A stretch of 64,000 nt of DNA from positions 14,636,716 through 14,700,715 of the forward strand of contig OZ316895.1 of the NCBI GenBank assembly GCA_973895155.1, written 5' to 3'. Below are positions 11,872 through 64,000 of the stretch, in pieces (position 1 is the first letter of the stretch; the number at the start of each line of letters is the position of its first letter). The notes under the pieces are model-generated. The model was not told the origin of the DNA. It saw nothing but the letters and a program-made list of their open reading frames with translations, and did not search any database. The translations under genes were made by a program, and so were the position numbers. This DNA comes from Marsupella aquatica (taxonomy: Eukaryota; Plantae; Marchantiophyta).

Positions 11872-12909
11872 TCAGATGCTTGATGCATCCCGGGCGCTTT
11901 TGCCATCATCTGATTCTCCCTTAGACTCGAGGTCCACAACCACTGGATTCTTCCCATCACCAGTTTGTCGCTTAGACTCGACATCGACGCCCACTGGACT
12001 CTTCCCGTCCTCAGCTTGTGTCGTAGACTCGAGGTCAACGACAACTGGACTCTTCCCGTCACCAGCTTTTCCCTTACAGTCAGAATTGAGATCAACGACC
12101 AGTACTGGACTCTTTCCAACATCAGCTTCTCCCTCAAAATCCGGATCGGTGAGAACTGGACTCTTGCCGCCATCATCTCCATCAGAGCTGAGATCGATAA
12201 ACACTGGGTTCTTGATCTCATTATGTCCATCAGAGCCGAAATCAGTGGACACTGGGTTCTTGCCGTCCTCAGCTTCTCCCGGAGAGTAAGAATCTGTAAA
12301 CATAGGGCTGTTGCCGTCATCATCTCCATCATAGTCGAAATCGCGATCGGTAGACACTGGGCCCTTGCGGTCATCAGATTCTCCCCGAGAGTCAGGACCA
12401 GTAAATATGGGGCTGTACATATTGCCGTCATCAGGACCAGTAAACATGGGGCTGTACATGTTGCCGTCATCCGACTCTCCCGGAGAGTTTGAATCAGTAT
12501 GCATTAGCTTGTTTGCTTCATCAGAGTCTTCGTCTGAGTCCAAATCGATAAACACTGGGCTCTTGCGGTCATCATCTCCATCATAGTCGAAATCGGTAGA
12601 TCTTGGGCTCTTGCCGTCATCAGATTCTCCCGGAGAGTCAGGACCAGTAAACATGGGGCTGTGGCCGTCATCAAACTCTCCCGGAAAGTTTGAATTAGTA
12701 TGCATTAGATTGTTTGCTTCATCAAATTCTTCCTCTGAGTCCAAATCGATAAACACTGGGCTCTTCCGGTCATCCTCTCCATCAGAGGAGAGATCGATAA
12801 ACACTGGGCGCTTACTGTCATCATTCCCAACAGAGTCGAGCTTGATAAACCCTGCGCTCTTACCGCCGTCATCAGATTCCCCCTGAGAGGTTGGCGTCCT
12901 CGTCGGCAT
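11872..12909 (-). CDS. Acidic low-complexity repeat protein with ~7 SUMO-interacting-motif-like units (poly-SIM); probable frameshift near the 3' end
   Basis: 345-aa ORF with repeated SPVFIDL(D/S)S[DE]n and SPVVVDLES units; probable 5'UTR intron acceptor near 12938; paralog at 20428-21111. Confidence 0.6.
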   Translation of the reverse strand: MPTRTPTSQGESDDGGKSAGFIKLDSVGNDDSKRPVFIDLSSDGEDDRKSPVFIDLDSEEEFDEANNLMHTNSNFPGEFDDGHSPMFTGPDSPGESDDGKSPRSTDFDYDGDDDRKSPVFIDLDSDEDSDEANKLMHTDSNSPGESDDGNMYSPMFTGPDDGNMYSPIFTGPDSRGESDDRKGPVSTDRDFDYDGDDDGNSPMFTDSYSPGEAEDGKNPVSTDFGSDGHNEIKNPVFIDLSSDGDDGGKSPVLTDPDFEGEADVGKSPVLVVDLNSDCKGKAGDGKSPVVVDLESTTQAEDGKSPVGVDVESKRQTGDGKNPVVVDLESKGESDDGKSARDASSI

Positions 12910-15845: not shown

Positions 15846-16086
15846 CTTGGGGGGGGTCACTTCTATGGAAGTGGCATATCACATGCGATGCAGTAGAGGG
15901 CCATTTTTGGCGGAAGACTTATTAAGTCTTCAATGGAAACATAGGGTTAATTGCAAAATGCATACGTGTCATCACATGATTGGTGTCATACAACTTTATT
16001 GAAAGTGACTTAGGGGGATCATAAATGACCCAAACCGTCGCACGTGATGTATGACCCTCCATATAGTGACCCCCCCTTCCCCCGAG
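15846..16086. mobile_element. MITE with 8-bp TSD AACGCTGC, inserted in the LINE remnant
   Basis: Ends cttggggggggtcact ... agtgacccccccttcccccgag; aacgctgc at 15838-15845 and 16087-16094. Confidence 0.85.
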
Positions 16087-16641
16087 AACGCTGCCACGTA
16101 CTCCCAGTTCTTGGGCCGTCTTCCCATGCTCCAAAGTACGTTGTGTCCACCCTACATTCATATGTATATAATTATGTGTGTGGCCAAGTCTGTAGATCAT
16201 CACCAACAATCTGCACAACACTAATCATCTCAAGATTTTCCAATCCAAGTGTATGTCAACAAGATTTTGCCAACACTCCAGCAATGGAGAATTTATGCCG
16301 GAATTCAACTGGAGAGCCAGGAATCGGGCCGGGAATGCCAACTAAGGAACTCTCAAGCCAAAATCTAACTAGTACCCGTGCTAGTATCTGAGGTTGCTAA
16401 TTTCTCACATTCTCCTTCCACCAAGTGAGGGGAGCCAGACCCAATGGGACATGAATCTGCAGGCTAAACCTTTCTAACTTGGCCATGCATACATGTTTCA
16501 ATGGCAGGCCTGTGGTTGTAGTGCATCTTGTGAACACATACCTTCTCCAAACAAAGATGCATGCACATGTACAGTTACTAACCCCAAGAGTATATATAGA
16601 TCTAACAGCCCATGCACTAAGTAGTAGAACAGTCCTTCTTA

Positions 16642-16643
<2 letters not shown>

Positions 16644-16674
<31 letters not shown>
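16644..16674. repeat. (TA)n microsatellite
   Basis: Seen directly. Confidence 0.9.
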
Positions 16675-16676
<2 letters not shown>

Positions 16677-16866
16677 CACAATGCCATTTTAATTTGTGGA
16701 ACAACCTCTATTATCCTAGTATGCAAGGAAAAATTATTATGGGACAACACCTCCTCCATGACATCTTTTGCACAACGACCTCTATTTCATCTTTTGCGCA
16801 ACTTACGTCATCTTGTATGCGCGCAATATTGTCTTTATGCAGCAACAACTTTGGTGCAAAGTTATC

Positions 16867-17487
16867 CTGGGGGGCCTCACTCTAAAGGGGGTCTCGTATG
16901 GGGTCTCATAACATGCTCGACATTTTTAGCAATTAAACACCCTAAAAAATAAGAAGAAAAAAATTGAACTATTTCTCTGCAACTCTTGTTTGGCCCCAAA
17001 TGAAATACTCCCAAATTTCATTTCTAAAATCATATCGATCCTTCTCTTATAATTCTCAAAATTGGATTTTAGAAACCCTAGCTAATGTTCTTTTACATAA
17101 ATTTAAAAGTATTCTTTTCAACCCAATAAACAAACCATATACTTACTTGCGCATGATCTCGGGGGTTTCACTTCCACAAAAATGGCATATCACGTGCGAC
17201 GAAGGATAGGGTCATTTTATTGGTTTTAAGGGAAGACTTAAGAATTTTTGTAGAAGAACAATAGGGTCTTTTAAATTCAATTTTGAGACTTATAAGAACA
17301 TTAGGGTCTTTTTAATCCAATTTTTAGAATATTCCAAGAATATTCCAACTTTATAGGGGTTAAAAATAATTTTCTTACATTTTAGGGGGTCCGAGGCCTA
17401 AAAACATCGCAGGCGATGGGGAGGTCCCCATATAGTGAGACCCCCGAGCGCATGATGGGTAAAAAGTAAATAAGTGAGGACCCTGAG
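16867..17487. mobile_element. MITE (outer), 8-bp TSD AAGTTATC, containing a nested MITE
   Basis: TIRs ctggggggcctcact / agtgaggaccctgag; aagttatc at 16859-16866 and 17488-17495. Confidence 0.85.
17158..17448. mobile_element. MITE (291 bp), 8-bp TSD CGCATGAT
   Basis: TIRs ctcgggggtttcact / agtgagacccccgag; perfect TSD; near-identical to 18461-18749. Confidence 0.92.
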
Positions 17488-18460
17488 AAGTTATCCTTCA
17501 CATACTAAGAACATCTTTGGGACAGAAATATAAAATTGTCCATGGAACACATAGGTATTGAGTTAGTATTTGAATCAAAACCTGCCACAAGTATTTACTT
17601 AAAAATATTTTTCTACCTTGTGGAGAAAGAGTACGTCCAAACTTATAGAGGACTCAAAAACATTTGAGCTATTCCAAATTTTACTTTTTATCACAAAAAC
17701 AATTTAGGTCTCAAAAAATGTAGACATTGCTTCTTGTGTACATATCTGGCTTGAGCATACAAAATAAATCATACTCTTAGTACCTTACTTCATTTTTAAA
17801 GTTGTCCAACTAAGGGGTATTAGAGCAATCATGTTTGAATGATGTGGGGGCTAAGTTCATGTAATTATTGTATTGAAATCAAAATTATTACCCTTTAACT
17901 TTGTGAGCAACTATTGGAGGTCAGAAATTATTACCTAGATGGCAAGAATTTAAAAATACAATTTTAATGATATCAGATTTTCTGGAACTACTTTCTCTCC
18001 CTGTTAGTTCTCTACCAGCTTTTTTGATAGAAATTTGTGGCTCAAATTAAACAAAAGAATGACTATAGTTTTTAGATACAGGTCATGTTTTAGGCGTACA
18101 GTTTACTAAGTTGGGTTGGAAAGTTTGCATGTCGTGATTTCTAAGAATTTTTGAATGTCATGATTAAGCTTTGACTACAATAGGTCATCAGCCTCTTGAG
18201 GTGCTAGTCTAAACAAAGAAAGTCCGGACCAGGAGCAAATCACCCTTGGTAACTACATAGAAATTTCAATTTATCACTATATATAGCATGTTCATCTTGG
18301 AATATGCTTTGTTTTTGTTCTTGTAGTGATGTGTAAACAATTATTGCATTATATTGGATAGGATTGATCAAGTAGAAAAAATAGGGCACATAGTACATGT
18401 TACATAATGACCAGGAAAAGCACAAGTGCACAAATCTTGAAAAGTTGAGCACACAAGGTA

Positions 18461-18749
18461 CTCGGGGGTTTTACTTCCACAAAAATGGCATATCACATGC
18501 GACGAAGGATAGGGTCATTTTATTGGTTCTAAGGAAAGACTTAAGAATTTTTGTAGAAGAACAATAGGATCTTTTAAATTCAATTTTGAGACTTATAAGA
18601 ACATTAGGGTCTTTTTAATCCAATTTTTAGAATATTCCAATAATATTCCAACTTTATAGGAGTTAAAAAAAATTCTTACATTTTAGGGGGTCCGAAGCCT
18701 AAAAACATCGCAGGCGATGGGGAGGTCCCCATATAGTGAGACCCCCGAG
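18461..18749. mobile_element. MITE (289 bp), 8-bp TSD ACAAGGTA
   Basis: TIRs ctcgggggttttact / agtgagacccccgag; acaaggta at 18453-18460 and 18750-18757. Confidence 0.92.
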
Positions 18750-19751: not shown

Positions 19752-20160
19752 CACAAATTAGAGGCCTTTCGAAAAGACCATCATTGAATACACAAATTAG
19801 CGGTCTTTTGAAAAGACCATTATTGAATACACAAATTAGCGGTCTATTGAAAAGACCATTATTGAATACACAAATTATTTAGCGGTCTTTCTAAAAGACC
19901 ATTATTGAATACACAAATCATGAATACACAATTTATTTAGCGGTCTTTCGAAAAGACCATTATTCAATACACAAACTAGCGGACTTTCGAAAGACCATTA
20001 TTGAATACACGATTTAGCGGTCTTTCAAAAAGACCGTTATTCAATACACAAACTAGCGGTCTTTCGAAAGACCATTATTGAATACGCAATTTAGCGGTCT
20101 TTCGAAAAGACCATTATTCAATATACAAACTAGCGATCTTTCGAAAGACCATTATTGAAT
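19752..20160. repeat. ~39-bp minisatellite, ~10 copies, palindromic core GGTCTTTCGAAAGACC
   Basis: cacaaa(t/c)tagcggtctttcgaaa(a)gaccattatt(g/c)aata repeated head-to-tail with no spacers. Confidence 0.95.
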
Positions 20161-20427
20161 CCGTTACGCAAACTACACTAGGTTCTCTTCAGAAGCAACC
20201 CATGTAATTTGAGTGGGAAAATTATATGAACTAAGGCAAAATCAAATCCACCCAACTCATGAAAAGGAGTCACCCCGGAACATCAGAGAAACAGCCTTGT
20301 AATGGGAAACGCGCTTAGAAGGTGGAAGAAGTCAATCTTCATTCTATCGTCGAGCAGAGTCCCTGAAAACCCAACCAGGCGGACGACCAAAGTCATCTCC
20401 ACTGTAATCAACTCGATTCTAGCTCTA

Positions 20428-21111
20428 TCAGTCAGACAAGTAAATAATATGTGGTAGGGGCTTCGGGACCTCAGGTTCTCCATCAGAGTTGACGTACAGA
20501 ATGCCTTCTGAGCCATTATCGTCATCAGATTTTCTCTGAGAGCCGGACTCGCTAGACGTTGGGCTGATGCAGTCTCCAGAATCTCCCTCAGATCGAGAGT
20601 CTGGGCCATTATCGTCATCAGATTTTCTCTGAGAGTCGGACTCGGTAGACGTTGGGCTGATGCAGTCTCCAGATTCTCCCGAACCCACATTACTACTTCT
20701 TGGCGCTTCTGACGGCTCAACAATACAGCCAGCTTTTGTCGCATCAAACTTGAGCTCAATCCATCCTCGTCTTGGTCTCGGTTTATTTCTTCTATACATC
20801 TGTGTCCTACCAAAATATCGACGATATCGACATTCCCTCGATGTTATTGCTTCAAGAAGGACAGAAAACATTTCCGTACATGCCCCACTCTGATGGTTAG
20901 GTTTAGTACTAGTACTCTCAGCGTCACTGACAGCAGCCCCCACCTGATATTCCCCACTCTCGCCCCCACTCTGGTTAGTGCTTCCAGCATCACTGACAGT
21001 ATTCATTGCAACATTCATCACCAGTGATTGAACATGTGCCCCGCTCGGATCGTTAGACCCGAAGGTTTGAGCGTCACTATCAGCAGCCGCCACATGTGTC
21101 CTCTTCGGCAT
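20428..21111 (-). CDS. Paralog of the acidic repeat protein (diverged middle, basic stretch, ISPT(S)xES repeats)
   Basis: 227-aa ORF; start context (MPKRT vs MPTRT), C-terminal region and flanks are homologous to 11872-12909. Confidence 0.5.
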   Translation of the reverse strand: MPKRTHVAAADSDAQTFGSNDPSGAHVQSLVMNVAMNTVSDAGSTNQSGGESGEYQVGAAVSDAESTSTKPNHQSGACTEMFSVLLEAITSRECRYRRYFGRTQMYRRNKPRPRRGWIELKFDATKAGCIVEPSEAPRSSNVGSGESGDCISPTSTESDSQRKSDDDNGPDSRSEGDSGDCISPTSSESGSQRKSDDDNGSEGILYVNSDGEPEVPKPLPHIIYLSD

Positions 21112-25592: not shown

Positions 25593-25868
25593 CTTGGGGG
25601 TCTCACTATATGAGGGCCTCCCCATCAACTAAATCAAGATTGCAAGAAAAAAAAAATCAACCCCTATAAAGTTGGAATATTCTTGGAATCTTCCAACTTA
25701 TTGATTAAAAATACTCTAATGTAACTTTTATAAGTTTCAACATTTAATTTAAATACCATATTGTTCTTGTGAGAAAATTCTTAAGTTTTCTATTAGAACC
25801 AATAAAACTATCCTAGATTTTGTCGCATGTGATGTGTCATTGTTGTAGATTAAAATGAAACCCCTTAG
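25593..25868. mobile_element. Degenerate MITE, same family, reverse orientation
   Basis: cttgggggtctcactatatg ... tgaaaccccttag; flanks agtaatgg / attaatgg (1 mismatch). Confidence 0.75.
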
Positions 25869-32666: not shown

Positions 32667-33497
32667 TCAACGCCGTTGATTTATTCTCCATGAGGTTTCA
32701 GGCGTCCCAAGTTTCGAGGAAGCGTATCTGGCAGCTGTGAACAAATAATCACTCAAACGATTCAAGTACCGAACTACTGATTCATCCACCACCTGCTCTT
32801 CGACGAGAGTGGTCATTTTCCTTTCTGCACGCCGACAGATGGATCTCGCCACATGCAAAGATGAAGCAGGCAAACCACCAGACGGAAGGATGAAGCCCGT
32901 CTGGTGAGGCACCTCCTCGTCCATCTTAGCCCTCCAACTCTCGAGCACTTCAACTGTTGCCACATTGAATTTCACCCTCGGAACCTTCTTTGAAGAATTT
33001 GAAAATGGGTTGCTCAGAGGAACAGCAACAGCTGACCCAATGTCCAGCAGTCTCGACTGAATCTCCTCAATCTGCTGCAAAGTCGATGTCAGCTGAGCTT
33101 GAGAGCAATATGCATGTGCTAACCCTAATGTACTGCTCAGCTCATCGACAGCTCCCAGAGCTTCAAAGGTCGAACTTGATGACGACACTGAAGAATCTGG
33201 AGAAAAGAATCGAGTCCCAGGTGGGATACCCTTCACGGAGAGAGACTGGGTCGTCGTAAGAAGCCCTTGCTTTCCATACCGTGGTGTTCGAATTGCATCC
33301 CAGCGCAAAAGATGTTCCTCCAGTGGGCTTCTCGGCACGATGAGAGCATTGTGTGAGGAGGTTGTTCCATTCGATCTACTGGAAAGCAGCCTCTGATGCA
33401 ACTGAGGAGGAAGGGAATCCAGCCACGAGACTGCAACACGGCACTTCAGGGTCTCCCTGTGGATCGATCGCAGACAGTTCTGCATCGAAGTGGCCAT
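32667..33497 (-). CDS. MMAB: PduO/MMAB-type ATP:cob(I)alamin adenosyltransferase-like protein with probable organellar transit peptide, intronless
   Basis: FEALGAVDELSSTLG, IQSRLLDIG, FILPSGG, LHVARSICRRAER and YLNRLSDYLFTAAR are PduO-family motifs. Confidence 0.9.
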   Translation of the reverse strand: MATSMQNCLRSIHRETLKCRVAVSWLDSLPPQLHQRLLSSRSNGTTSSHNALIVPRSPLEEHLLRWDAIRTPRYGKQGLLTTTQSLSVKGIPPGTRFFSPDSSVSSSSSTFEALGAVDELSSTLGLAHAYCSQAQLTSTLQQIEEIQSRLLDIGSAVAVPLSNPFSNSSKKVPRVKFNVATVEVLESWRAKMDEEVPHQTGFILPSGGLPASSLHVARSICRRAERKMTTLVEEQVVDESVVRYLNRLSDYLFTAARYASSKLGTPETSWRINQRR

Positions 33498-33820
33498 GAT
33501 TGGAGACTACGCATCGACAGGTCTACCACAATCCATTGCTCTGCGTACTTGGGCACAACCTCTACAAAACTCTTCTGTACAAAAGTAAGACGTCCTCAAT
33601 ATTTTGATCAAATCTGATGGCAATGTCGCTGGTGATGAATGTCTGGCAACAAGGGTCTCAAATCTCAAACCTTGAGGTACTATTGCTACATACTCCATAC
33701 GCCCTTAAAGCAAGTTTTGTTAGTGTAACTGGGTGTTATCCAAACCCACGAAAGAAAATCTAAAAAGTATGGTCCAACTCACTCACTCCAAAGGCCATCT
33801 TGCATGTGAGAGGTCCTTAA

Positions 33821-53159: not shown

Positions 53160-54385
53160 GATGAGACGCAGAATTGGAGAGCGAATTCGTCCGAAAGGTC
53201 ACAGCTTCCCTCTCGCTTTCTTGCTTTTCTCAGAGCAAGGAATCCTGTAGAAAGAAAAGTGGAATATCCGTCGATTCCACCCGCAAACTCGCTTGTGGTT
53301 TTAATATCACCGCGTCCTTCACTAATCGTGCAATTAGACGTATGGTGCGTTCTACGAGAAACAAATAATGTCCATTTTAGTGAAGCTCTGAAAGCGACGA
53401 ATAGCAGCAACCGAGCACTTCTCTCCTGAAGATAAAACCTTCAGACAACCCGCGCAATGTAATTTACAGCCAAAAACCAGCAGCGAATGTTTCCCTTCTA
53501 GAACACAAGCTGGCAAAAGCTAAGGCCTTGCTGACGGCATACCATCTTACAGCCGTTTTCCATTCACAATCGCGAAAATCCGATGTCCGAACGCACTTAG
53601 ACCAATATGTCCACCTCTCTTCCCACGATTGGTAGCACCGCAACACAATTATGCAGACCGATAAAGAGGACTTTCTCCCGCCCGCAACCAGAAACCAAAG
53701 CGCTCCCTGTAGCTAACCAAGACACGCGCTTGCATCGTGCCTATCTTTCCCTCCATCCATCTCAAGGCTCACGCTCCTCCTTCTCCGTAACCCCGAGCCG
53801 AGCCGAAGCGGTACCTCAGTCACGAGCAGCAAAGAATTGCTCTTTCTCTCTTCTCCCTGATTCCCTGTCGAACACTTCCAATTTCCTCTCCCGTCCAACC
53901 ACGACCACAGAAACACACAAAAATCAACGTCTTCGAGACTCCATATGCCAAGCAGCAAGCAATGTATGTCTGCTACTCTCGATTGCCTGCCACCCTTGTC
54001 GACCAAAAAGCTCCGCACCCCGGCTGCTACCGCTCCCGCCAGTCGATATCAAACGAAAAGCTGCTTTCAATAGCTCGCGTGGAAGAGGGCAAAGGATAAA
54101 TGATGAGGCAGGCGATCCTCCTACTCGAAAGAGGTCTAGAGAGGAGCACCGCAGCAAATTAATACGCGCGAGTAGGAGATCCAAACTTGTCGGTACTTCC
54201 GCCTAATCTTCGCGCACACTTTCTGCAGAGGCGCATTTAATTCGTCGTGGCTCGCTCTTTCGCTACACGACCGCAACCCCCAATTTTGTTATTTTGAATA
54301 TCCGAAAGATCCCTCCGGAACTCTTCTGCACGGGACGGAGAAGTTTTCACGCCTTAGGGTTTCCGTCCAGTCAACAGTCATCACT

Positions 54386-54552
54386 CAGTCGATCGCCTTC
54401 TCGAGCTCCGGTCTGGTCTGGTCAGTCAGTCGATCGCCATCTCGAGCTCTGGTCTGGTCTGGTCTGGTCTGGTCTGGTCAGGTCAGGTCAGGTCAGGTCA
54501 GTCAGTCAGTCGATCGCCTTCTCGAGCTCTGGTCTGGTCTGGTCAGTCTGGA
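54386..54552. repeat. (GGTCT)n/(GGTCA)n microsatellite interspersed with 3 copies of cagtcgatcgcc.tctcgagctc
   Basis: Seen directly, upstream of the SLD gene next to a telo-box (ttagggttt at 54354). Confidence 0.85.
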
Positions 54553-54591
54553 CATGGCCCTCACGGCCCCACGGCCCCAAAACACGCGCAG

Positions 54592-55032
54592 GTCCCTACG
54601 GTAGTATTGTACTTAGAGCTTTTTAAGTACATGGCCACTAAGGGGTCCACTAATAAAACACTTTCACGTCCCTACGGTAGTATTGTACTTAGAGCTTTTT
54701 AAGTACATGACCACTAAAGATTGGTCCCTATTGTACTTAGAGCTTTTTAAGTACATGGCCACTAAAGGGTTTTTAATAAATAATATTTTACCTCGTTTTT
54801 GCATATATAAATATGACAGCCTTCTTTAGATATGGTTTGCCTTGGCTATGTCCGGGGGAAACTGAACAGTCAAGACGTCCTGAGACTCGAAAATGTGCTG
54901 ATCGTGAAATTCATGAGGACTCGATAATTTTATTAAGCCACAGGCTCGAATCCGTCCTGCGGCTCGAAAATGTGCTGATCATGAAATTCATGAGGACTCG
55001 ATAATTTTCTTAAGTCGCAGGCTCGAATCCGT
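54592..55032. repeat. Two sets of short direct repeats (~50 bp x3; ~78 bp x2)
   Basis: tattgtacttagagctttttaagtacatg.ccactaa x3; ctcgaaaatgtgctgatc.tgaaattcatgaggactcgataatttt..ggctcgaatccgt x2. Confidence 0.9.
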
Positions 55033-55561
55033 GACATGGGAGCAATTGAGTGGCACAAAAGTTGTCAACTTTCAATTGGGCTCGGATTGGTCCAGGAGCT
55101 TCAAGACAAGGAAGCTCCATTCTTCCCGAGGCAACACTAATTGTTGAGCCATTCAGACTATATTACACTGAACAGAAGCCAATTTCCAAAAACATGACTT
55201 GACATCTTGACTACTTTCTCCACAGGGTTGCCGAGTGCAATCTGTGAATGGTTCCTTCTTCTTTTTGGTGTAAAAGCAGCCATCACTTTACACAGTCCAG
55301 GATGGGCAAGGATAACATCTCCATCCATCTGGATTGATGTGGTGGATTTGTAGTCAATATATGAAAAGTGTGATATATTTGTAAATACAACAACCCAATT
55401 GTAATTGGAATATCCTTAGTGACAAAGTAATTAAAAGGTGATTGTACTTATTAATACTTGTCATCATAAGGTGTTGTAGTGGCATTGTCATGCCGAGGGA
55501 CAGTGCCGCTTGTGCACATGCACTTATTAATACTTGTCATCATAAGGTGTTGTAGTGGCAT

Positions 55562-55920
55562 TGTCATGCCGAGGGACAGTGCCGCTTGTGCACATCGGCA
55601 TGTCCCTCGCATGCCTGCTAGGTATGTAGTTAGGGCTAGTGTACTACTTGAGTTAGTGTCATGTTCTTGTAGCAAGTTTGGGCCGTTCTTGAAGCAAAAC
55701 GTGCTTGTTAGTGTGACGCCTTGACTTGATCTACTTAGGGCATGTCTTTCTTTGTCGGTTTTCAGTTCTTCTTGAATCGCTGTTGACAGAGCTCAGACAG
55801 TGCTCGTCGGTTCCGTACACGGGATTCACACAGTGATTCGTTAGATGCTCCCGGCTGATCTTGGCATCCTGCCGGTTTTCGATTCAATTTCAGTACGATT
55901 GTTTCTCTTACGCCTTTTAT
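55562..55920 (+). repeat. Terminal repeat segment A1 (359 bp; starts TGTCATG, ends CGCCTTTTAT)
   Basis: Direct alignment with A2. Confidence 0.92.
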
Positions 55921-55933
55921 TCAAGAAGAACTG
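55919..55933 (+). promoter_or_regulatory. Putative self-priming primer-binding site
   Basis: attcaagaagaactg is the exact reverse complement of cagttcttcttgaat (55763-55777), which overlaps an Inr-like TCAGTT in A1. Confidence 0.75.
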
Positions 55934-57231
55934 TCGAGTTAGCGGTGACGGGAAGAAGATTTCTCGTGGCAGTTTTGACAATTTTTGGTTAAGCCATTGC
56001 AATTTCCTCGATAGACATTGGAACGAGGCTTCAAAACTATGGGTTTAGTGTGGAGTTATGTGTATACTTAAGTGTATACACATAACACTCCCGTCGGGGC
56101 CCAGGTTTTCCTTTTCCGGCCGCAACCTTCTTTGTGACCTACATCGGCGACTTGCTACCGACTGCACAGGCCGCTGCGCCCTCGCTCGCATTTTTAAGAC
56201 CCTTGTTCGTTAGTTTTTATGGGCATTTTCCCGGCCACGGCTGCCGCGCGACCACTTCCCTTCCGACCGCGCGCCCCGTTTTTCTCTTTTTCGCCGTTTC
56301 CGGCCGTAGTCTCCCCTTTGCCTCCCTCCCGATCGCATAAGGCAGGCTGCGCATAGGGCATCATGCCCTCTCGTTTTGACAGCATTTAATTAAGGAGGCA
56401 GGGAGTCGACTAGCCGAGCACAAGCGCGAGGGGGGAGACAGAGCCTAGGCAGGCAGCAGCGCAAGGAGTGGGCACGAGGCCCTATGCTGCATTAAAGGGG
56501 GAAGGGGAGTACATACGACTCCCTTCTCGGGAGTCCTCCTGCAGCACACGAAGCAGCATTAAAGCAGGGGGAGACAGAGCCGAGGTAGTGGGCACGAGGC
56601 CCTATGTGCTACATTAAATGGAGGGGGGGAGTACATATGACTCCTTCCCTCAGGAGTCTCCTGCAGGGCATGGAGCCCATTTTCAGCCTTAAGGAGGGGA
56701 GGGGAAGCGAGGCAGCATTAAAGGAGAGGAGGGGGGAGTTTGTAACCCCTTTTCGGGAGCTCATAAGGAGGGGGCGCGAAGCCCTATGCAGGGCTCGTGC
56801 CATTAAGAGGGGCCCCTGCATCCGCCATTTCTTTCCCTTCGCTGAGTGTCCGAAGTGTATACACTTAATTCGGGCCCTTTTCTTTTCGTTTTCGGCCGTT
56901 CTCGCTCATTCACCACGTGCGGGATGCCAGCATAGGGCATTGGGGCCGGCCAGTCCTTCCATTTTTGGGTCCACATAGGGGCCTGAGGTATATACTTCAG
57001 GGGGCCCATTTTCCTCATATTCCTTTGCTGTCGCCGACGTCAGGTCGTCTATATACAGCCCGGTATATACACAACGGACGGTCAATTCGGCATATACATA
57101 GGCAAACGCGAAGGGGGCTAAATTTGAGGTTTTAAGGGTCCTTTTTCCCCGACGGTTTTTTGACGGTGACGGTTTTTCCTGGTGTTTACACATTTTGCAC
57201 GTTTTCAGTATATCCGGTATTGCAACACAGT

Positions 57232-58269
57232 ATGTCAGCAGACGAGCCAGGAGGTAGCAACACATCACCGCCGACATCCAGGTACCGTTTACGGAGTGAT
57301 CCACGACTATTGGTGCCAATTTCATTGGAGTCTCAGCAATTTCGACGACGTCCGTAGACAGCAGCAGCACCCACACCACGCAATCCTTCTGCTCAATTTG
57401 GCGGTCGCTTCACCACTACTCCAAAGCCTGCTATCACTTCATTGCCATTTACCCCTTCTGCATCCGTGGTTGTTCCTGCTTCACCGACATACAGCATGGA
57501 CGCCAGCCACTCATCTGGCCGCATTGAACGCTTCAGTGGGCGGCCAGACATTGTTTCTTTGCGTGAGTTCAAATCCACTTTCTACACTGTCATTTATGAA
57601 TTGGAGTTGAAGTATGGCAGCAATTTCACAAATGCCTTTGCATTTAAACAGCTAGCCAGGTATGTGCACCACGAGGTTTTAGATGTGTATGAGCAGCACT
57701 CTCAACGGCTGCTTGCCGTCACACAATTGCCTAACCCTGCCTATGCCATTGCAATTGCGGCTGCCTCACAACTGGCATTACAGAATGCCATTGCAGCCCA
57801 TGCTGCTGCTCCTGCCACTTCCCTTTCTACTCCAGTTCCCACCATTGCACCAGTTACTCCCACTATCTTGGCACACGCTACATCAGGCATTTCTCCCACC
57901 ATTGATTCCCCTGCCTTTGCTGATCCAGTGGCTGAGTCTTTCCAGGTTCTTGAATTGGAATTCCCAATCAAGAGTGCTGACAAAATCATGCAGTTGGCCA
58001 CCTTTGTGAGGCAGCGCGATGAAACATTGAAGATGATGTATCGCCGGCTTCTCCAGCTGAAGGAGGACACCTAGAGCATCATTGACTTGGAAGCTGCTCA
58101 TTGCTATCTTCGCTCATTGGAGGGCACACTAGCTCTCCATTCGCAAGTGTTGCAGCAAGTATTCTCAGAGTTTGGAGATAGCTACACCCTGCTCAATGTC
58201 TATGACACTGCTGAGAAACTTGAGTTGGCCCATGCACATTATGAGGCCAGTATTGCGCGTCCACCGCGA
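57232..58269 (+). pseudogene. gag: gag-like ORF of copy 1, with in-frame TAG at 57355 and 58072, truncated by insertion
   Basis: ORF pieces 57160-57357, 57442-58074 and 58087-58284 share one frame; IERFSG..LREF.. and RQRDETLKMMYRRL resemble retrotransposon capsid motifs. Confidence 0.7.
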
Positions 58270-58445
58270 TGTCGTGACATATAGTATCGTAGCCATAGTG
58301 TATCGAAAACATACAAGTCACCGGCAAGGCATATGTGCAAGCTGCTAGCAACCAACATGCATAGAAAAAGTCCAATCACATTCACAAGTGCCAAGAAAAA
58401 GCAAATGAAGTGGTATGTACGTAGTGGAGGTGTAAACCTCTGTAT
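58270..58445 (-). repeat. Terminal repeat segment B2 (176 bp; ends ..CACGACA)
   Basis: Direct repeat of 58807-58982 with 3 transitions. Confidence 0.95.
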
Positions 58446-58804
58446 ATAAAAGGCGTAAGAGAAACAATTGTACTGAAATCGAATCAAAAACCGGCGGGAT
58501 GCCAGGATCGGCCAGGAGCATCTAACGAATCACTGTGTGAATCCCGTGTACGGAACCGACGAACACTGTCTGAGCTCTATCAATAGCGATTCAAGAAGAA
58601 CTGAAAAACCCACAAACAAAGACATGCCCTAAGTAAACAAAGTCCTGGCGTCACACTAACAAGCGCATTTGCTTCAAGAACGCCTGGCATTTGCTATAAG
58701 AACATGTCACTAACTCAAGTCGTACACTAGCCCTAACTACATACTTAGCGGGCATGCGAGGGACATGCCGATGTGCATAAGAGGCACTGTCCCTCGGCAT
58801 GACA
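58446..58804 (-). repeat. Terminal repeat segment A2 (359 bp; starts TGTCATG on the minus strand)
   Basis: Inverted copy of 55562-55920. Confidence 0.92.
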
Positions 58805-58806
58805 AC

Positions 58807-58982
58807 TGTCGTGATATATAGTATCGTAGCCATAGTGTATCGAAAACATACAAGTCACCGGCAAGGCATATGTGCAAGCTGCTAGCAACCAACATGCATA
58901 GAAAAAGTCCAATCACATTCACAAGTGCCAAGAAAAAGCAAGTGAAGTGGTATGTACATAGTGGAGGTGTAAACCTCTGTAT
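58807..58982 (-). repeat. Terminal repeat segment B1 (176 bp), immediately after the PPT
   Basis: Direct repeat of 58270-58445. Confidence 0.95.
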
Positions 58983-59000
58983 CCCCCCCAGACCCTCGCC
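58983..59000 (-). promoter_or_regulatory. Polypurine-tract-like sequence (..GGCGAGGGTCTGGGGGGG)
   Basis: G-rich tract between the pol stop (59034) and B1. Confidence 0.75.
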
Positions 59001-59048
59001 CAGACCACAGCCAAAAGGAGGGCTGAAGAAAATTCAGGTAGCACGTGG

Positions 59049-59195
59049 AGCACATGAAGGGCAAAACCATAACCCTTCTGGCACCTGGGTAAGTTCAAGC
59101 CGAAGGCAGAAAAGATGGTACCCTCCATTGCAATTGTCACACAGCAGCATCTGGTCAGCATCATCAATTCGCAAACACACTTTGCAAGGGTAGTC
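59049..59195 (-). other. PHD finger at the integrase C-terminus
   Basis: DYPCKVCLRIDDADQMLLCDNCNGGYHLFCLRLELTQVPEGLWFCPSC (C4HC3 plus conserved W). Confidence 0.93.
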
Positions 59196-62100
59196 CACAC
59201 GTGGAATCCAGGTAGAAGTCACAATGGTGGGATCCAGGTTAGGCAGATGACAAGGGGCGCAATTCTTGGCATTGTCAGCAATTGTGCGCCCATCTGCCCC
59301 TTGTAACTCTAGCACTCCAGACGGTCGAATAGCTTTAACCCTGAGAATTGTACGACTGGTAGAGGTGTCTAGGGTGTCGTTAGCTTGCCGCTGCAAGTAC
59401 ACAAAATCTCCCACATCAAACTTCCTGACCTTGGGCTGAAAAGTGCCCCCTCGTGTGTGTGCATAACGCAGTGTGTCCCTATGCTGTGCAATGGCCAAAT
59501 TCTCCATGGCCATGGGCATAACCCTCCTGAATGGGGCAGCCCTCTCAGAGATCACATCAGACCAAGTCACAGCTGAATCCAAGTCTACCACCTGAACCAT
59601 GTGAGCAGCAATAGCAGAAGGTGGAACTGGGTGACGACCAAACAACAAGAAGTAGGGAGAAAAGTTAGACAATGATGCATGTCTAGACATCCTATACCCC
59701 ATGGCAATGTAGGGTAAGGCCAGGTCCCAATCCTCCTTGTTTTTGGTGAGGCAAATCTTCCGGAGACCCTTCTTGCATGTCTGAACCATGCGCTCTGCCA
59801 AGCCATCTGCCTGTGGGTGATCTCGTGACGTTCGGCGATGATCAATGAGGGCTTGATCAAGCAGCTCCTGGAACTCTCCTCTGAACTTTGATCCCTGGTC
59901 AGTGAGACATTCTGCACAAGCTCCAAAGCGGCTGTGAACTTGTTGCAGGAATGCCTGGCTCGTGCTACGAGAGGTCTTATCCGGCAATGCCACAAGTTCT
60001 ATCCACTTGGAGAAATGCTCTATCATGATCATGATGTAGAGATTATCCTGAGACGTGAGGGGTAATTCTCTAGCCAAATCACATGACCAGCGATAAAACA
60101 TGCCCTGAATAGGGAGTGGATGAAGTGTGGGTTGCCGAGATGTGAAAGAAGTCCTCACCCTATCACATTGTTCACACCGAGCAATAACATCTTGAACCTG
60201 GCCATGCATGCCTCTCCAATGATAATGAGGGACCAAGAGGCTGTAAGTCCTCTTAACGCCAAAATGACCAAGCTCATAATGTACCTTACGGATAAGGCCA
60301 ACCCTCTCATGAATGGGTGGAACCACCACTTCCCTGTCTGGCAAGCAGCGCATGAGATGATCTCCCTTCCACAAGTAACGCTTGGACCTTTGCTGAATTC
60401 GGTCTCTCTGGGTTGCAGTAACATGTATGGGGTACTCCCCATGCTGCAAAAATCTCATAGTGTCGCTGTCCTCCCATATGTCCACCACAGGTTGGTCAAC
60501 GATATAGCATGGCAGCAAAGCAAGATAGGTAAATGCATGAAATGTAGGCAGGATGGAAACCTGGTCAAAATCCTGCCGTGCATCTGAGGGATCATCAGAG
60601 GCAATCAAAGGGCTGCGGGACATAGTGTCAACATTTTGATGTGTCACACCAGGCCTATGAATTACCTCAAAATCATACTCCTAGAGTATGAGTGCCCAAC
60701 GAGCAAGCTTGCTAGTAAGCTTGTCGTTGGTCATCAACCACTTCAAGGGCTGGTGGTCGGTGTAGAGAACAAACCTGGTCCCATAGAGGTAGGGCCTGTA
60801 ATGTATTACAGCCCACACAACAGCAAGGCATTCACCCTCATAAGAAGAATAATGACTCTCTGTCTGATTGTTGCTCCTGGATGCATAGGCAATGACGTAC
60901 TCTTTACCTTCCTCATCATGCTGGCCTAGAATGGCACCAATCCCAAGGGCACTCCAATCTGTGTGTAGCACAAAGACCTTGCTGAAATCAGGTCTTCTCA
61001 GCACCGGGTATTCTGAGAACTTCTCCTTCAAAGTGGCAAATGCTGCCTTAGCATCTGTACTCCATGTCCAAGTCACATTATTTTTCAACAAAGAGTGCAA
61101 TGGATGTGCAATGGTACTGAAATCTTTGATGTAGATCCGGTATTAATTGCACAGCCCAATAAAACTCCTCAAAGTGTGAACATCGGTAGGAGTGGGCATT
61201 TCCAAGATGGATACCACCTTGGCCCAGTGAGCCATGGTTCCATTTGGAAGAATGCGATGCCCAAGATATACTACTGATCTGACAGCAAATTCACACTTCT
61301 TGGGGTGTATCTTTAGGTTCACCTTCTTAAGCCTCATGAATAGCTCCTCAAGGTCAAGTAGATGTTGGTCAAATCCTTTGCTGTGGACCAACACATCATC
61401 AATGTAGCATTTCAGAAACTCAGCACCTTGAAGAACCTGGTCCATGACTCTTTGAAAGAATATGGGCGCATTCTTCAAGCCAAATGGCATCACCAACCAC
61501 TCCCATAGTTGGTTACTACCATGGAAAGCTATTTTCTTGCGGTCCTTTGCAAACAGCAAAATCTGGTTAAAGCCTTGCCTTAGATCCACAAGAGTGAAGA
61601 TGTCTGAGTCTCCAATGCTGTCAAATAGCTCCTCTGGCCGTGGCATGGGGTACCTGTCCTGGGGTGTGACCAGGTTCAGTGGCCTGTAGTCCCCACACAT
61701 GCGCTTCTCTGTCCACAATCCACTGGAATCCTTCTTTGCTGGCATCACTGTAGCTGCTGCAAAATCTGATGTAGATGGCTGAATAAGACTAGCTTCATAG
61801 AGCTCTTGGCATCTCTCATCCACCAACTGCCACTCATGCTTACTCAAACGGTGTCTCCGCCTGAAGATAGGTGTTTCATCAGCCAAATCAATGGAGAACT
61901 GCATAGTCTTGCACTTACCCAAGTCCTTCATAGAGAAAGCAAACACATTCTCATGCTTGAGGAGCAAATTCAGCAGCTGGTCCTTCTGTCTTTTACTCAG
62001 GTGGTTGCCCATGATGAATGTGTAGTTGGCAACACTAGGAATAGGACCTGATGTACTCGTGCTTGAAGAGCCAGAAGTGCCAGCCTCTCCACTGTCCAAG

Positions 62101-62364
62101 CTGCTAGCATGCTGCTGATAAGATGATGAGGCCTCTCCAAGGCCTGCTATATCTGTTGCTCTGGTCTGATCCACACCATGAAACTCAGAAATAATGTCAG
62201 CCACATTACAAGGGACCTCCTCCCCCCCAACACTTGGACTGAAGTGGTGAGTGTTGGACAGAGGTAAATGCACCTGGTCTGGATGCCATGTAGCAGCACC
62301 ATGGAGTGGTAGGGCTAGAACTCCTGATGCTGGATGAATGTACATCTGAAAAAGGATGCAAGTG

Positions 62365-63305
62365 ACCAGAAGCCAAGTGAGAGCATTAAGATCCATTACC
62401 CTATCAAGTAAAGCATTCCTGGCCAGCCTGGTGATTTTGGTGTGACTGTAGTACCGGGTTGGAAGCCCATAGCCCGTTCTCTCTCCTCAGGACTAGGTTC
62501 ATCCCATGTACCGGTGGAATGTCGATAAACCAGGCCAGGACCATCACCCTGAAAAGCATGTGCACCTAGAAAGGACACAAATGTAGGCCAAGCAACACGG
62601 GGCTGTCCAATGGTATTAGCTGGATACCAAGGTGCTGGCTCTTGCCGTGTAACCGGTTGGCAAGAACTGTCAGGATCCAAAATCTGGTCCACTATGAGGT
62701 TAGTGACCCTGGATGTGTGGTGAAGAGCTAACTCCAACAAGGAAGGTGGTGCAAGGTTAGTCCAAAAGTTACGAAGACGATGTGCATAAGAACCATAGTG
62801 CACTGCATCAATGAGAAGGGGTGGTCCCAAGTAGTGCTGGACCACACTGAAATCCTCTTTGACCTGTGGACGCTGGTCAAACTGAGATGGAGTATTCTCA
62901 ATGATATAACCAACAGCAAGATAAAGGGATTGAGCCCAGATGAGAATCAAAACCAATGCTGTGAAAAGGCCAGAACGAGAATCATGCAGTCCAGCACCGT
63001 GACCAGCAGCTGAAAACCCTTGGCATTCCCAACCAGCAATGATCAAATCAAGGGAGCCAAGAAGGGTTAAGTGCCGGTGCTGGACAAGCTGGATATCTGG
63101 AGGAAAGAAAGAAAATGCAGACTTCCATGCACTGTGTGGAAACTGCTGAGGAAATCGCTCTGAAAATTCCAGTAGACGGGATTCAGCCACTTGCCTTGCA
63201 CCTGGATCAATATCCACATAGATGTACTGCTTCACCACCATGCCAGACTATAGGAGAGCTTCCAGGCCTGTAGAAATACCACCAAAAAGCTCAAGCAATG
63301 TAAGG
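62365..63305 (-). other. C5 cytosine DNA methyltransferase domain (DNMT3/DRM-like) within pol
   Basis: Motif I LLELFGGISTG, II YVDID, IV DLIIAGWECQGFS, VI IIENT, VIII HRLRNFWTNL, IX EERERAMGF, X RNALLDRVMDLNALTWLL (after the frameshift). Confidence 0.9.
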
Positions 63306-64000
63306 CCATCCGGAGCAGGAGTCCATGTAACTGGTACGCTCAAGATTGGGGCTATTGGCTGTCCATTGTGCTGCCCAAGGTCTTCAAACTTGCGCAATGC
63401 AGCCACCAAAGGTCCATGGGCTGCTTGGAGTCGTTGTACCACCTCTGGTTGATGATCCACATTGCTGGAAAGTGCTGCTATATGTGCAGCGGCATGTGCA
63501 ACAGCCACCTCATCATCATCCTCCTCAATCCAATCCTGCAATGGGTGATTGACATAGGTAGCTGTGTGCACTACTTTCAACACACAGTGGTGAGCCATAG
63601 GTGTATGGGCACCATGCAAATCAAGTGGAATGTAGCCCAAGTGTGAGCCATCCGTATGCCAATCAACTCTGTAGTATGCATGCTCATGCCAGTTGTCAAT
63701 GGTAAAACCTGGTGGGAACAAAGCCTCCTGGCCAATGAGCACATCATACGTAGTGGCATTGGTAACCAAACATTTGACTGGGAAATGCAGTTCCTGATCT
63801 ATACCTCCATTAAAAGTGAGAGTGAGTAAAGTAGAACTCTCACCCAACACGTCCTCCACGGTGCCACTAGCAGTCCGAATGTGCCACCTGGATTGCTGTA
63901 AATGATGAGTCAGCAGTCCCATCTTCTTGGCAAACTGAATGCCCAAGATTACTGGTTGAGCGCCTGTGTCTAGCATGACCACCTGAGGAGTGTGACCCTC

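Follow-up and report, generated by a model that had tools for sequence, protein, structure and literature searches.

Among described retrotransposons, the closest to the one analyzed here is KnitGypsy-Dnmt3 of Klebsormidium (de Mendoza et al. 2018), which has Gypsy domains with a DIRS-type repeat structure (PMC5890265, Fig 4c legend); the same paper defines that structure as A-coding-B-A-B (Fig 1e legend). The sections of the paper that we compared do not state the termini, target duplication, priming, or mechanism of this element (the Fig 4c image and a large supplement were outside the comparison). Split direct repeats in the order A1-B1-A2-B2 are also described for PAT, Toc, and Ngaro (PMC4157794). 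We analyzed a 64,000-nt stretch of the liverwort Marsupella aquatica (contig OZ316895.1, positions 14,636,716 to 14,700,715; "the window"), which holds two incomplete copies of a retrotransposon with these repeats. As in KnitGypsy-Dnmt3 and the streptophyte Gypsy-DNMT3 elements, to the extent that the compared sections describe them, Gypsy domains are combined with a cytosine methylase inside Pol and with A-coding-B-A-B repeats. Unlike PAT, Toc, and Ngaro, the window's element and its relatives have a DDE integrase, a protease, a polypurine tract (PPT), TG...CA ends, and (in the relatives) 4-bp target duplications, and we found no recombinase.

An initial annotation of this DNA, made from the sequence alone, implied that the layout might be new, which it is not: DIRS-type repeats with Gypsy domains were already reported in the 2018 paper (PMC5890265, Fig 4c legend). 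In the literature that we searched (subscription journals and Repbase Reports were outside the search), we found no mechanism for the integration of split-repeat Gypsy elements. Publications on split direct repeats with gypsy and integrase concerned, by their titles, tyrosine-recombinase (YR) elements, Penelope-like elements, or were general reviews. KnitGypsy appeared only in the 2018 paper, and a 2026 preprint, in the part available to us, names Gypsy-DNMT3 without its end structure. So the layout has been known since 2018 but has barely been described, and what is new here is sequence evidence for an unusual and testable route of integration.

We propose that these elements make an ordinary complementary DNA (cDNA) with a B-GC-A repeat at both ends, that the integrase cuts a CA-GC-TG site inside the left repeat, and that the two ends of the cDNA are joined to each other, which leaves the A|B joint. 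We put the probability of this route at roughly two in three.

Copy 2 is read on the minus strand. Its pol stop (59034) is followed by a run of seven G's that forms the core of the PPT (58989-58983; relatives also have a G-rich run before B), then by B1 (58982-58807), the dinucleotide GT (58806-58805), A2 (58804-58446), and the 3' terminal repeat B2 (58445-58270, 176 bp). Copy 1, on the plus strand, has A at its start (A1, 55562-55920, 359 bp, with host flank GCAT) and continues from there straight into internal sequence. A1 and A2 align end to end with 326 of 360 columns identical, and B1 and B2 match at 173 of 176 positions; the initial annotation had placed these repeats and their shared boundary correctly to the base. 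A1 ends at CGCCTTTTAT (55920), which is exactly where A2 gives way to B2 in copy 2, and the first bases of B1, ATACAGAGG, lie immediately 3' of the G run. A opens with TGTCATG and B closes with CACGACA, and together they form an imperfect palindrome at B1|A2, centred on the 2-nt spacer. The 90.6% identity of A1 to A2 is not a measure of age, because A1 and A2 sit in different elements.

Copy 2 is inverted and inserted in a gag-like frame of copy 1 at 58269/58270; at position 58270, other copies read on uninterrupted in four sequencing runs. As both copies are incomplete, no target duplication can be read within the window. A BLAST search of the whole window gave no further copies of A or B, except for a 34-nt echo of the start of A that lies in a 76-bp tandem duplication (55443-55518 and 55519-55594). 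This duplication straddles the 5' junction of copy 1 (43 bp of host sequence and the first 33 bp of A) and is probably younger than the insertion of copy 1. In the other genomes surveyed alongside this one, a search gave no similar stretch.

To compare this locus with relatives, we used a metagenome scan in which 589 integrase loci were confirmed; the best 80 of these correspond to 70 distinct loci. At the 3' end, 26 of the 70 have PPT-B-NN-A-B and 34 have PPT-B; of the remainder, one (L075) has B-A and the first 14 nt of B2, two have no repeat after pol, and seven are cut by the contig end. None of the 70 loci has an ordinary pair of long terminal repeats (LTRs), although the initial annotation had left room for such A+B pairs in other copies. 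A never comes right after the PPT (0/70), and the primer site follows B in none of the 34 B-only ends. A 5' end is present at 23 loci and could be parsed for 22 (L075 was omitted). These 22 complete relatives comprise 8 with A-internal-B-A-B and 14 with A-internal-B. B precedes A1 in none of the 22 (the upstream sequence of two of them is shorter than 160 bp), and none carries the two whole direct LTRs that are expected of an inserted Ty3/Gypsy copy. The split-repeat layout is a family-wide trait; the initial annotation had taken the agreement of the two copies as an argument against random deletion.

In contigs from two studies, the start of A and the end of B in the window's own family are bordered by mixed host sequence (agreement 0.40-0.48, as read from 12 of 85 loose-end rows), and the end of A is followed by the primer site that copy 1 has. 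This family is highly repeated in its host: by a rough estimate, its summed contig depth is about 100,000, versus 50-130 for single contigs (run X1). Lone-B insertions were considered as candidates and set aside: a joint of the same contig depth has B beside an internally deleted A.

That the window shows a one-off rearrangement or an assembly artefact of an element with ordinary A+B LTRs is hardly credible. Taken alone, A+B does look like a standard LTR with TG...CA ends, and it does occur as lone A|B units flanked by 4-bp repeats. But the same layout is present at 26 distinct loci of other assemblies, the arrangements that ordinary LTRs would give (B then primer site, A right after the PPT, B before A1) are absent from all of the relatives in which they could be scored, and the window's own family has the same ends in independent runs. 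The lone A|B units (L038:6131-6610, with exact 4-bp flanks, and L080:6060-6526, with one mismatch) could be mistaken for ordinary solo LTRs in annotation.

The B-only and B-A-B forms are scattered on a tree of the integrases (17 changes, versus 19.4 when shuffled; 59 rows, weak support), so both forms arise repeatedly. (For this tree, 11 of the 70 loci were omitted because of short sequence or no class and the window was added; 8 of the 56 inner branches were well supported.)

The likely start of reverse transcription is at the end of A1. The 15 nt at 55919-55933 are the perfect complement of 55763-55777, which lies inside A, whereas the longest complementary match in 2000 base shuffles was 13 nt (mean 6.1). 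The two 15-nt arms pair in both the minimum-energy and the centroid folds (z = -2.0). The same self-complementary arrangement is present at 22 of 23 related 5' ends, with different sequences and with two positions changed on both sides. We predict that the site at the end of A1 is a self-priming primer-binding site, and 55763-55777 is likely to be both the 5' end of the transcript and the self-primer. Tf1/Sushi elements and the plant Tcn1 chromoviruses also have a primer site that is complementary to their own repeat instead of a transfer RNA, but in the published description their LTRs are whole and a chromodomain is usual (Neumann et al. 2019, PMC6317226). The window's family has a PHD finger and a methylase, and the pol of copy 2 has no match to a chromodomain, at its C terminus or elsewhere.

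Because the PPT is at the start of B and the self-priming site is at the end of A1, the replicative LTR would be B-spacer-A. Our data support a replicative LTR of the form B-GC-A that runs from the PPT to the self-priming site, with the integrated ends inside it. The initial annotation had proposed both points, and the second is borne out by the mixed host flanks at the start of A and the end of B and by the 4-bp duplications in relatives.

TG...CA ends together with a short target duplication are the mark of a DDE integrase. The 4-bp flanks are identical in 8 of the 22 complete relatives and have at most one mismatch in 19 of the 22, while exact matches of 3, 5, or 6 bp were found in none of them. 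In a control with cross-paired flanks, the proportions were 0.000 for exact matches and 0.054 for at most one mismatch. The boundaries were mis-snapped in three elements (L015, L060, and L069), and without these there are 8 exact matches and 17 of 19 with at most one mismatch. Among the 8 B-A-B elements, the duplication is exact in four and has one mismatch in two. Target duplications of 4-6 bp are described for plant LTR elements (PMC6317226). Given the TG...CA ends and the 4-bp duplications, insertion is performed by the DDE integrase; the initial annotation had named this enzyme, and the rve domain in the window does have the D-35-E triad.

The layout alone would fit a hidden tyrosine recombinase that integrates a circle as in the DIRS order, with the rve domain as a passenger. 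However, the 4-bp duplications of varied sequence, the TG...CA ends, and the D-35-E triad all speak against this explanation, which we consider very improbable and largely refuted. In six complete relatives, gag-pol proteins cover everything but 1.1-1.9 kb at the 5' end and gaps of under 370 bp. No tyrosine recombinase was matched in the covering proteins P0121 and P0001 or in the 5' open reading frames (ORFs) of the window, although a decayed or antisense one is not formally excluded, as no six-frame scan was completed. The initial annotation had pointed to the missing 5' part as a place for such a gene, and these coverage maps and Pfam searches of proteins, which are a partial test, reveal none.

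The initial annotation had also attributed split repeats to Troyka elements of animals. The available text on Troyka (Kojima 2025, PMC12440569) does not contain them: Troyka has a Gypsy-like domain order with a DDE integrase, as here, but it has CG...CG ends, 3-bp duplications, and whole LTRs, and is reported from animals only. We rejected Troyka as a precedent, as the window's family has TG...CA ends and its relatives have exact flanks of 4 bp (8/22) and not of 3 bp (0/22).

The two junctions of the B-A-B end differ in their variability. All 28 loci examined have a 2-nt spacer between B1 and A2 (AC in 10, GC in 6, AT in 5, GT in 5, TC in 1, and AA in 1). The spacer is GC or one of the transition products AC, GT, and AT in 26 of the 28, which points to a CA-GC-TG palindrome that is inherited and then decays once inserted. 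In the window, this spacer (58805-58806, minus strand), which lies between CACGACA and TGTCATG, is GT, but it is mostly GC in the window's family: G is found at 58805 in 48,320 of 49,629 depth in run X1 and in 2,696 of 2,811 in run X4. We infer that this is where the integrase cuts. At the other junction, the A2|B2 joint (58446/58445) is precise in copy 2 and in 12 of 26 relatives. The imprecise joints, which we classified by hand, include 4 that lose 2 nt at an AT microhomology, 3 with larger deletions, 3 in which one or two bases from the start of the primer site are added, and 4 with a one-base difference. The contrast in variability between joint and spacer has a Fisher p of 3e-6, which is a guide only as the loci are related. 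The pattern at the A|B joint is what fresh joining of two cDNA ends would leave. Also, the mean distance from B2 to the B1 of the same element is smaller than that to the B1s of other elements (0.099 versus 0.122, Wilcoxon p = 0.003, n = 23). On the plus strand, a TATATAAAAGG motif (58440-58452) spans the A2|B2 joint, antisense to pol, and it exists only once the joint has formed.

Instead of being joined afresh, the A2|B2 joint might be inherited, with the ends restored from a template as in PAT and Ngaro. The RNA would run from A1 to B2, B1-GC-A2 would template a B2-GC-A1 junction, and the DDE integrase would open that junction. The repeat order is the same as that reported for PAT, Toc, and Ngaro (PMC4157794), the precise joint is the commonest class, and B2 has its own B1 as the nearest B1 in only 6 of 23 cases. 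The one-sided product could be explained if only the new junction is exposed. But the PPT is exactly at the start of B1 and the covarying self-priming site is exactly at the end of A1, and canonical priming from these would discard B2. Joints with primer-site bases and with microhomology deletions, scattered over the tree, do not fit inheritance either, and B1 and B2 are not separate lineages (0.120 versus 0.122, although this small difference is itself significant, p = 0.001). We think that templated restoration is unlikely, though less so than any of the other alternatives.

The joint might also be made by the reverse transcriptase (RT). If the plus strand jumped from the end of A to the start of B, aided by the AT that the two share, then the cDNA would contain ...B-GC-A-B-GC..., the integrase would nick the outermost CA sites, and no end-joining by the host would be needed. 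This would give the one-sided product directly, and it would account for the AT microhomology at the joint, as 4 of the 26 joints lose exactly that AT. It would also fit a set of short ends: of the 60 terminal copies of B, 10 (L017, L030, L036, L041, L050, L052, L058, L060, L065, and L078) are shorter by 10-15 nt and end, in most cases, at an inner CACGACA repeat, as would be expected if each end were nicked independently. Two of these are flanked at that point by a 4-bp duplication, exact in L036 and with one mismatch in L058. However, the 12 precise joints retain both AT dinucleotides, unlike the product of a homology jump, and later contraction of the tandem motif, which is seen in B1 of L024, could also produce the short ends. 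We therefore doubt this route as well, and a little more than templated restoration. The short ends may result from alternative nicking or from later contraction; we do not count them as proof of internal nicking, as later contraction yields identical sequence.

Another way to place the ends inside the LTR, suggested by the initial annotation, is to open a two-LTR circle within one of its LTRs. The ends do lie inside the LTR, but if the circle were cut at random, then the mirror form A-B-A-internal-B should be as common as A-internal-B-A-B. We found 0 versus 8 among the 22 complete elements (binomial p = 0.008), so random opening of the circle is disfavoured and a bias toward the left site is required.

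The proposed route, with joining of the cDNA ends and a cut in the left repeat, would run as follows. Judging from the boundaries, a transcript that starts in A1 would prime itself just after A1 and jump to A2, and the plus strand would begin at the PPT, giving a linear B-GC-A-internal-B-GC-A. The integrase would then nick after each CA across the 2-bp spacer, producing two recessed CA-3' ends with a 2-nt 5' overhang, the same structure that normal 3' processing leaves. Both ends would be joined to the target with a 4-bp stagger; the outcome of this step is seen in the duplications, while its chemistry is presumed. Finally, the free A end would be ligated to the start of B, either before integration (as a two-LTR circle) or after it (during repair at the insertion site). 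The spare B1-GC-A2 would serve as the template for the next round, and the A-internal-B copies may be dead ends that arise via one-LTR circles, repair by annealing of B1 to B2, or later recombination. In standard reverse transcription, double-stranded DNA forms at the left LTR well before it does at the right one. We speculate that the left site is chosen because of this earlier double-strandedness, or else because the right site is protected by the element's methylase.

Several points weigh against this proposal. No cDNA, circle, or enzyme was observed, and the steps are read from old insertions whose repeats have diverged by 6-15%. The bias toward the left site is not explained by any test here. 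The 70 loci are one related family from a few assemblies, with integrases that are 58-80% identical to the window's, and are not the window's own family; for that family, the comparison covers 12 of 85 loose-end rows, so its host copies could include rare ones with ordinary LTRs. L009 has no duplication and L070 has two mismatches, in addition to the three mis-snapped boundaries. Part of the variation at the A|B joint could reflect later mutation or inheritance: L024 and L026 are sisters that share one joint variant (on a tree with few well-supported branches), and a single added T at the joint could be slippage. That B2 usually has some other B1 as its nearest also counts against fresh joining.

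The pol of copy 2 encodes, by Pfam, an aspartic protease, a C5 cytosine methylase, RT, RNase H, H2C2, rve, and PHD domains, in that order, and is interrupted by three stops and one frameshift. All of these are on the minus strand. The protease (PF13975, E = 7e-6) and the methylase (PF00145, E = 1e-5) are at 62396-64000, with a stop at 63248-63250 and the frameshift near 62400-62490, and this region continues past the window. RT and RNase H are at 60681-62486 (in-frame stops at 61143-61145 and 60681-60683), and the integrase, with H2C2, an rve domain with D201-D261-E296, and a C-terminal PHD finger, is at 59034-60680. The order protease-RT-RNase H-integrase is that of Ty3/Gypsy (Metaviridae), and the RT and integrase have Pfam matches to RT_RNaseH and H2C2. 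The best matches of the methylase in PDB are DNMT3A, which is weak (E = 0.015), with HhaI close (E = 0.039). The methylase is between protease and RT in both copy 2 and P0121. In P0122 and P0125, which are distant relatives, it follows RNase H and precedes the integrase, and these two positions within the clade recall the two domain orders that were reported for SymbioDIRS-Dnmt3. The initial annotation got the layout of the element right but overlooked that Pol contains a methylase, that there is a site for self-priming, and that A-internal-B is a common form.

The nearest named proteins to the window integrase are from another liverwort, Calypogeia fissa (78-88% identity for the best three), followed by Klebsormidium nitens (45-58%) and Haematococcus (46%). 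The K. nitens integrases are not confirmed as belonging to the published KnitGypsy-Dnmt3.

In copy 1, the 5' untranslated region (55921-57169, plus strand) has internal repeats of about 120 bp (by self-BLAST) and two overlapping ORFs of at least 120 amino acids with no Pfam match. The gag-like frame that follows (57170-58269, plus strand; the start is approximate) is broken as well as interrupted by copy 2. It was identified by similarity to the N terminus of P0121 (69% identity over 57496-58263), which goes on into protease and methylase; the frame itself has no Pfam match.

Elsewhere in the window, an uninterrupted frame of 279 amino acids (32667-33506, minus strand) has a cobalamin adenosyltransferase domain (PF01923, E = 7e-42) and a long serine-rich N-terminal extension. 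A 35-bp stretch just upstream of copy 1 (55403-55437) is bordered on either side by many different sequences in runs X3 and X4 (16-21 contigs) and is a short dispersed repeat. Tandem and dispersed repeat arrays, with two overlapping low-complexity ORFs, are at 11897-12869, 19756-20165, 20507-20680, 15850-18749, and 54381-55029, and there is a dispersed repeat with an inverted copy near 25641-25849.

Cleavage of joined ends by DDE enzymes has precedents. When given a palindromic LTR junction in vitro, foamy virus integrase cleaves both strands after the CA and leaves a 5'-protruding AT (PMC1180852), and IS3-family transposases act at minicircle junctions on abutted ends with a short spacer (PMC3299598). 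In both systems, as described there, the enzyme cleaves abutted, spaced ends and the freed 3'-OH inserts, as we propose here. However, the foamy virus and IS3 junctions are made anew by end joining, while in the window's family the junction that is cut would be inherited and the newly joined A|B would not be cut. More broadly, this green-lineage Gypsy clade may have moved its attachment site from the ends of the cDNA to an inherited, 2-bp-spaced palindrome inside the LTR. The internal junction would then be the normal substrate of the integrase, as in IS3, the left copy would be picked, and end-joining would be needed for a replication-competent copy, with circular cDNA, a dead end for other LTR elements, as a working intermediate. 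We consider the odds of this broader picture to be about even.

For annotation, the family is highly repeated yet invisible to tools that search for pairs of LTRs. The survey of plant elements in PMC6317226 used LTR-FINDER, which requires two LTRs, so it would miss a split-repeat family.

Circles are usually regarded as dead ends, although cleavage of the junction has been demonstrated in vitro (PMC1180852). Whether covalently joined LTR junctions are true substrates of retroviral-type integrases is an old and unsettled question, and the window's family appears to integrate solely via such a junction. The proposed route predicts that the cDNA ends lie at the start of B and the end of A, that the spacer stays at 2 bp while the A|B joint varies, and that the left site is favoured.

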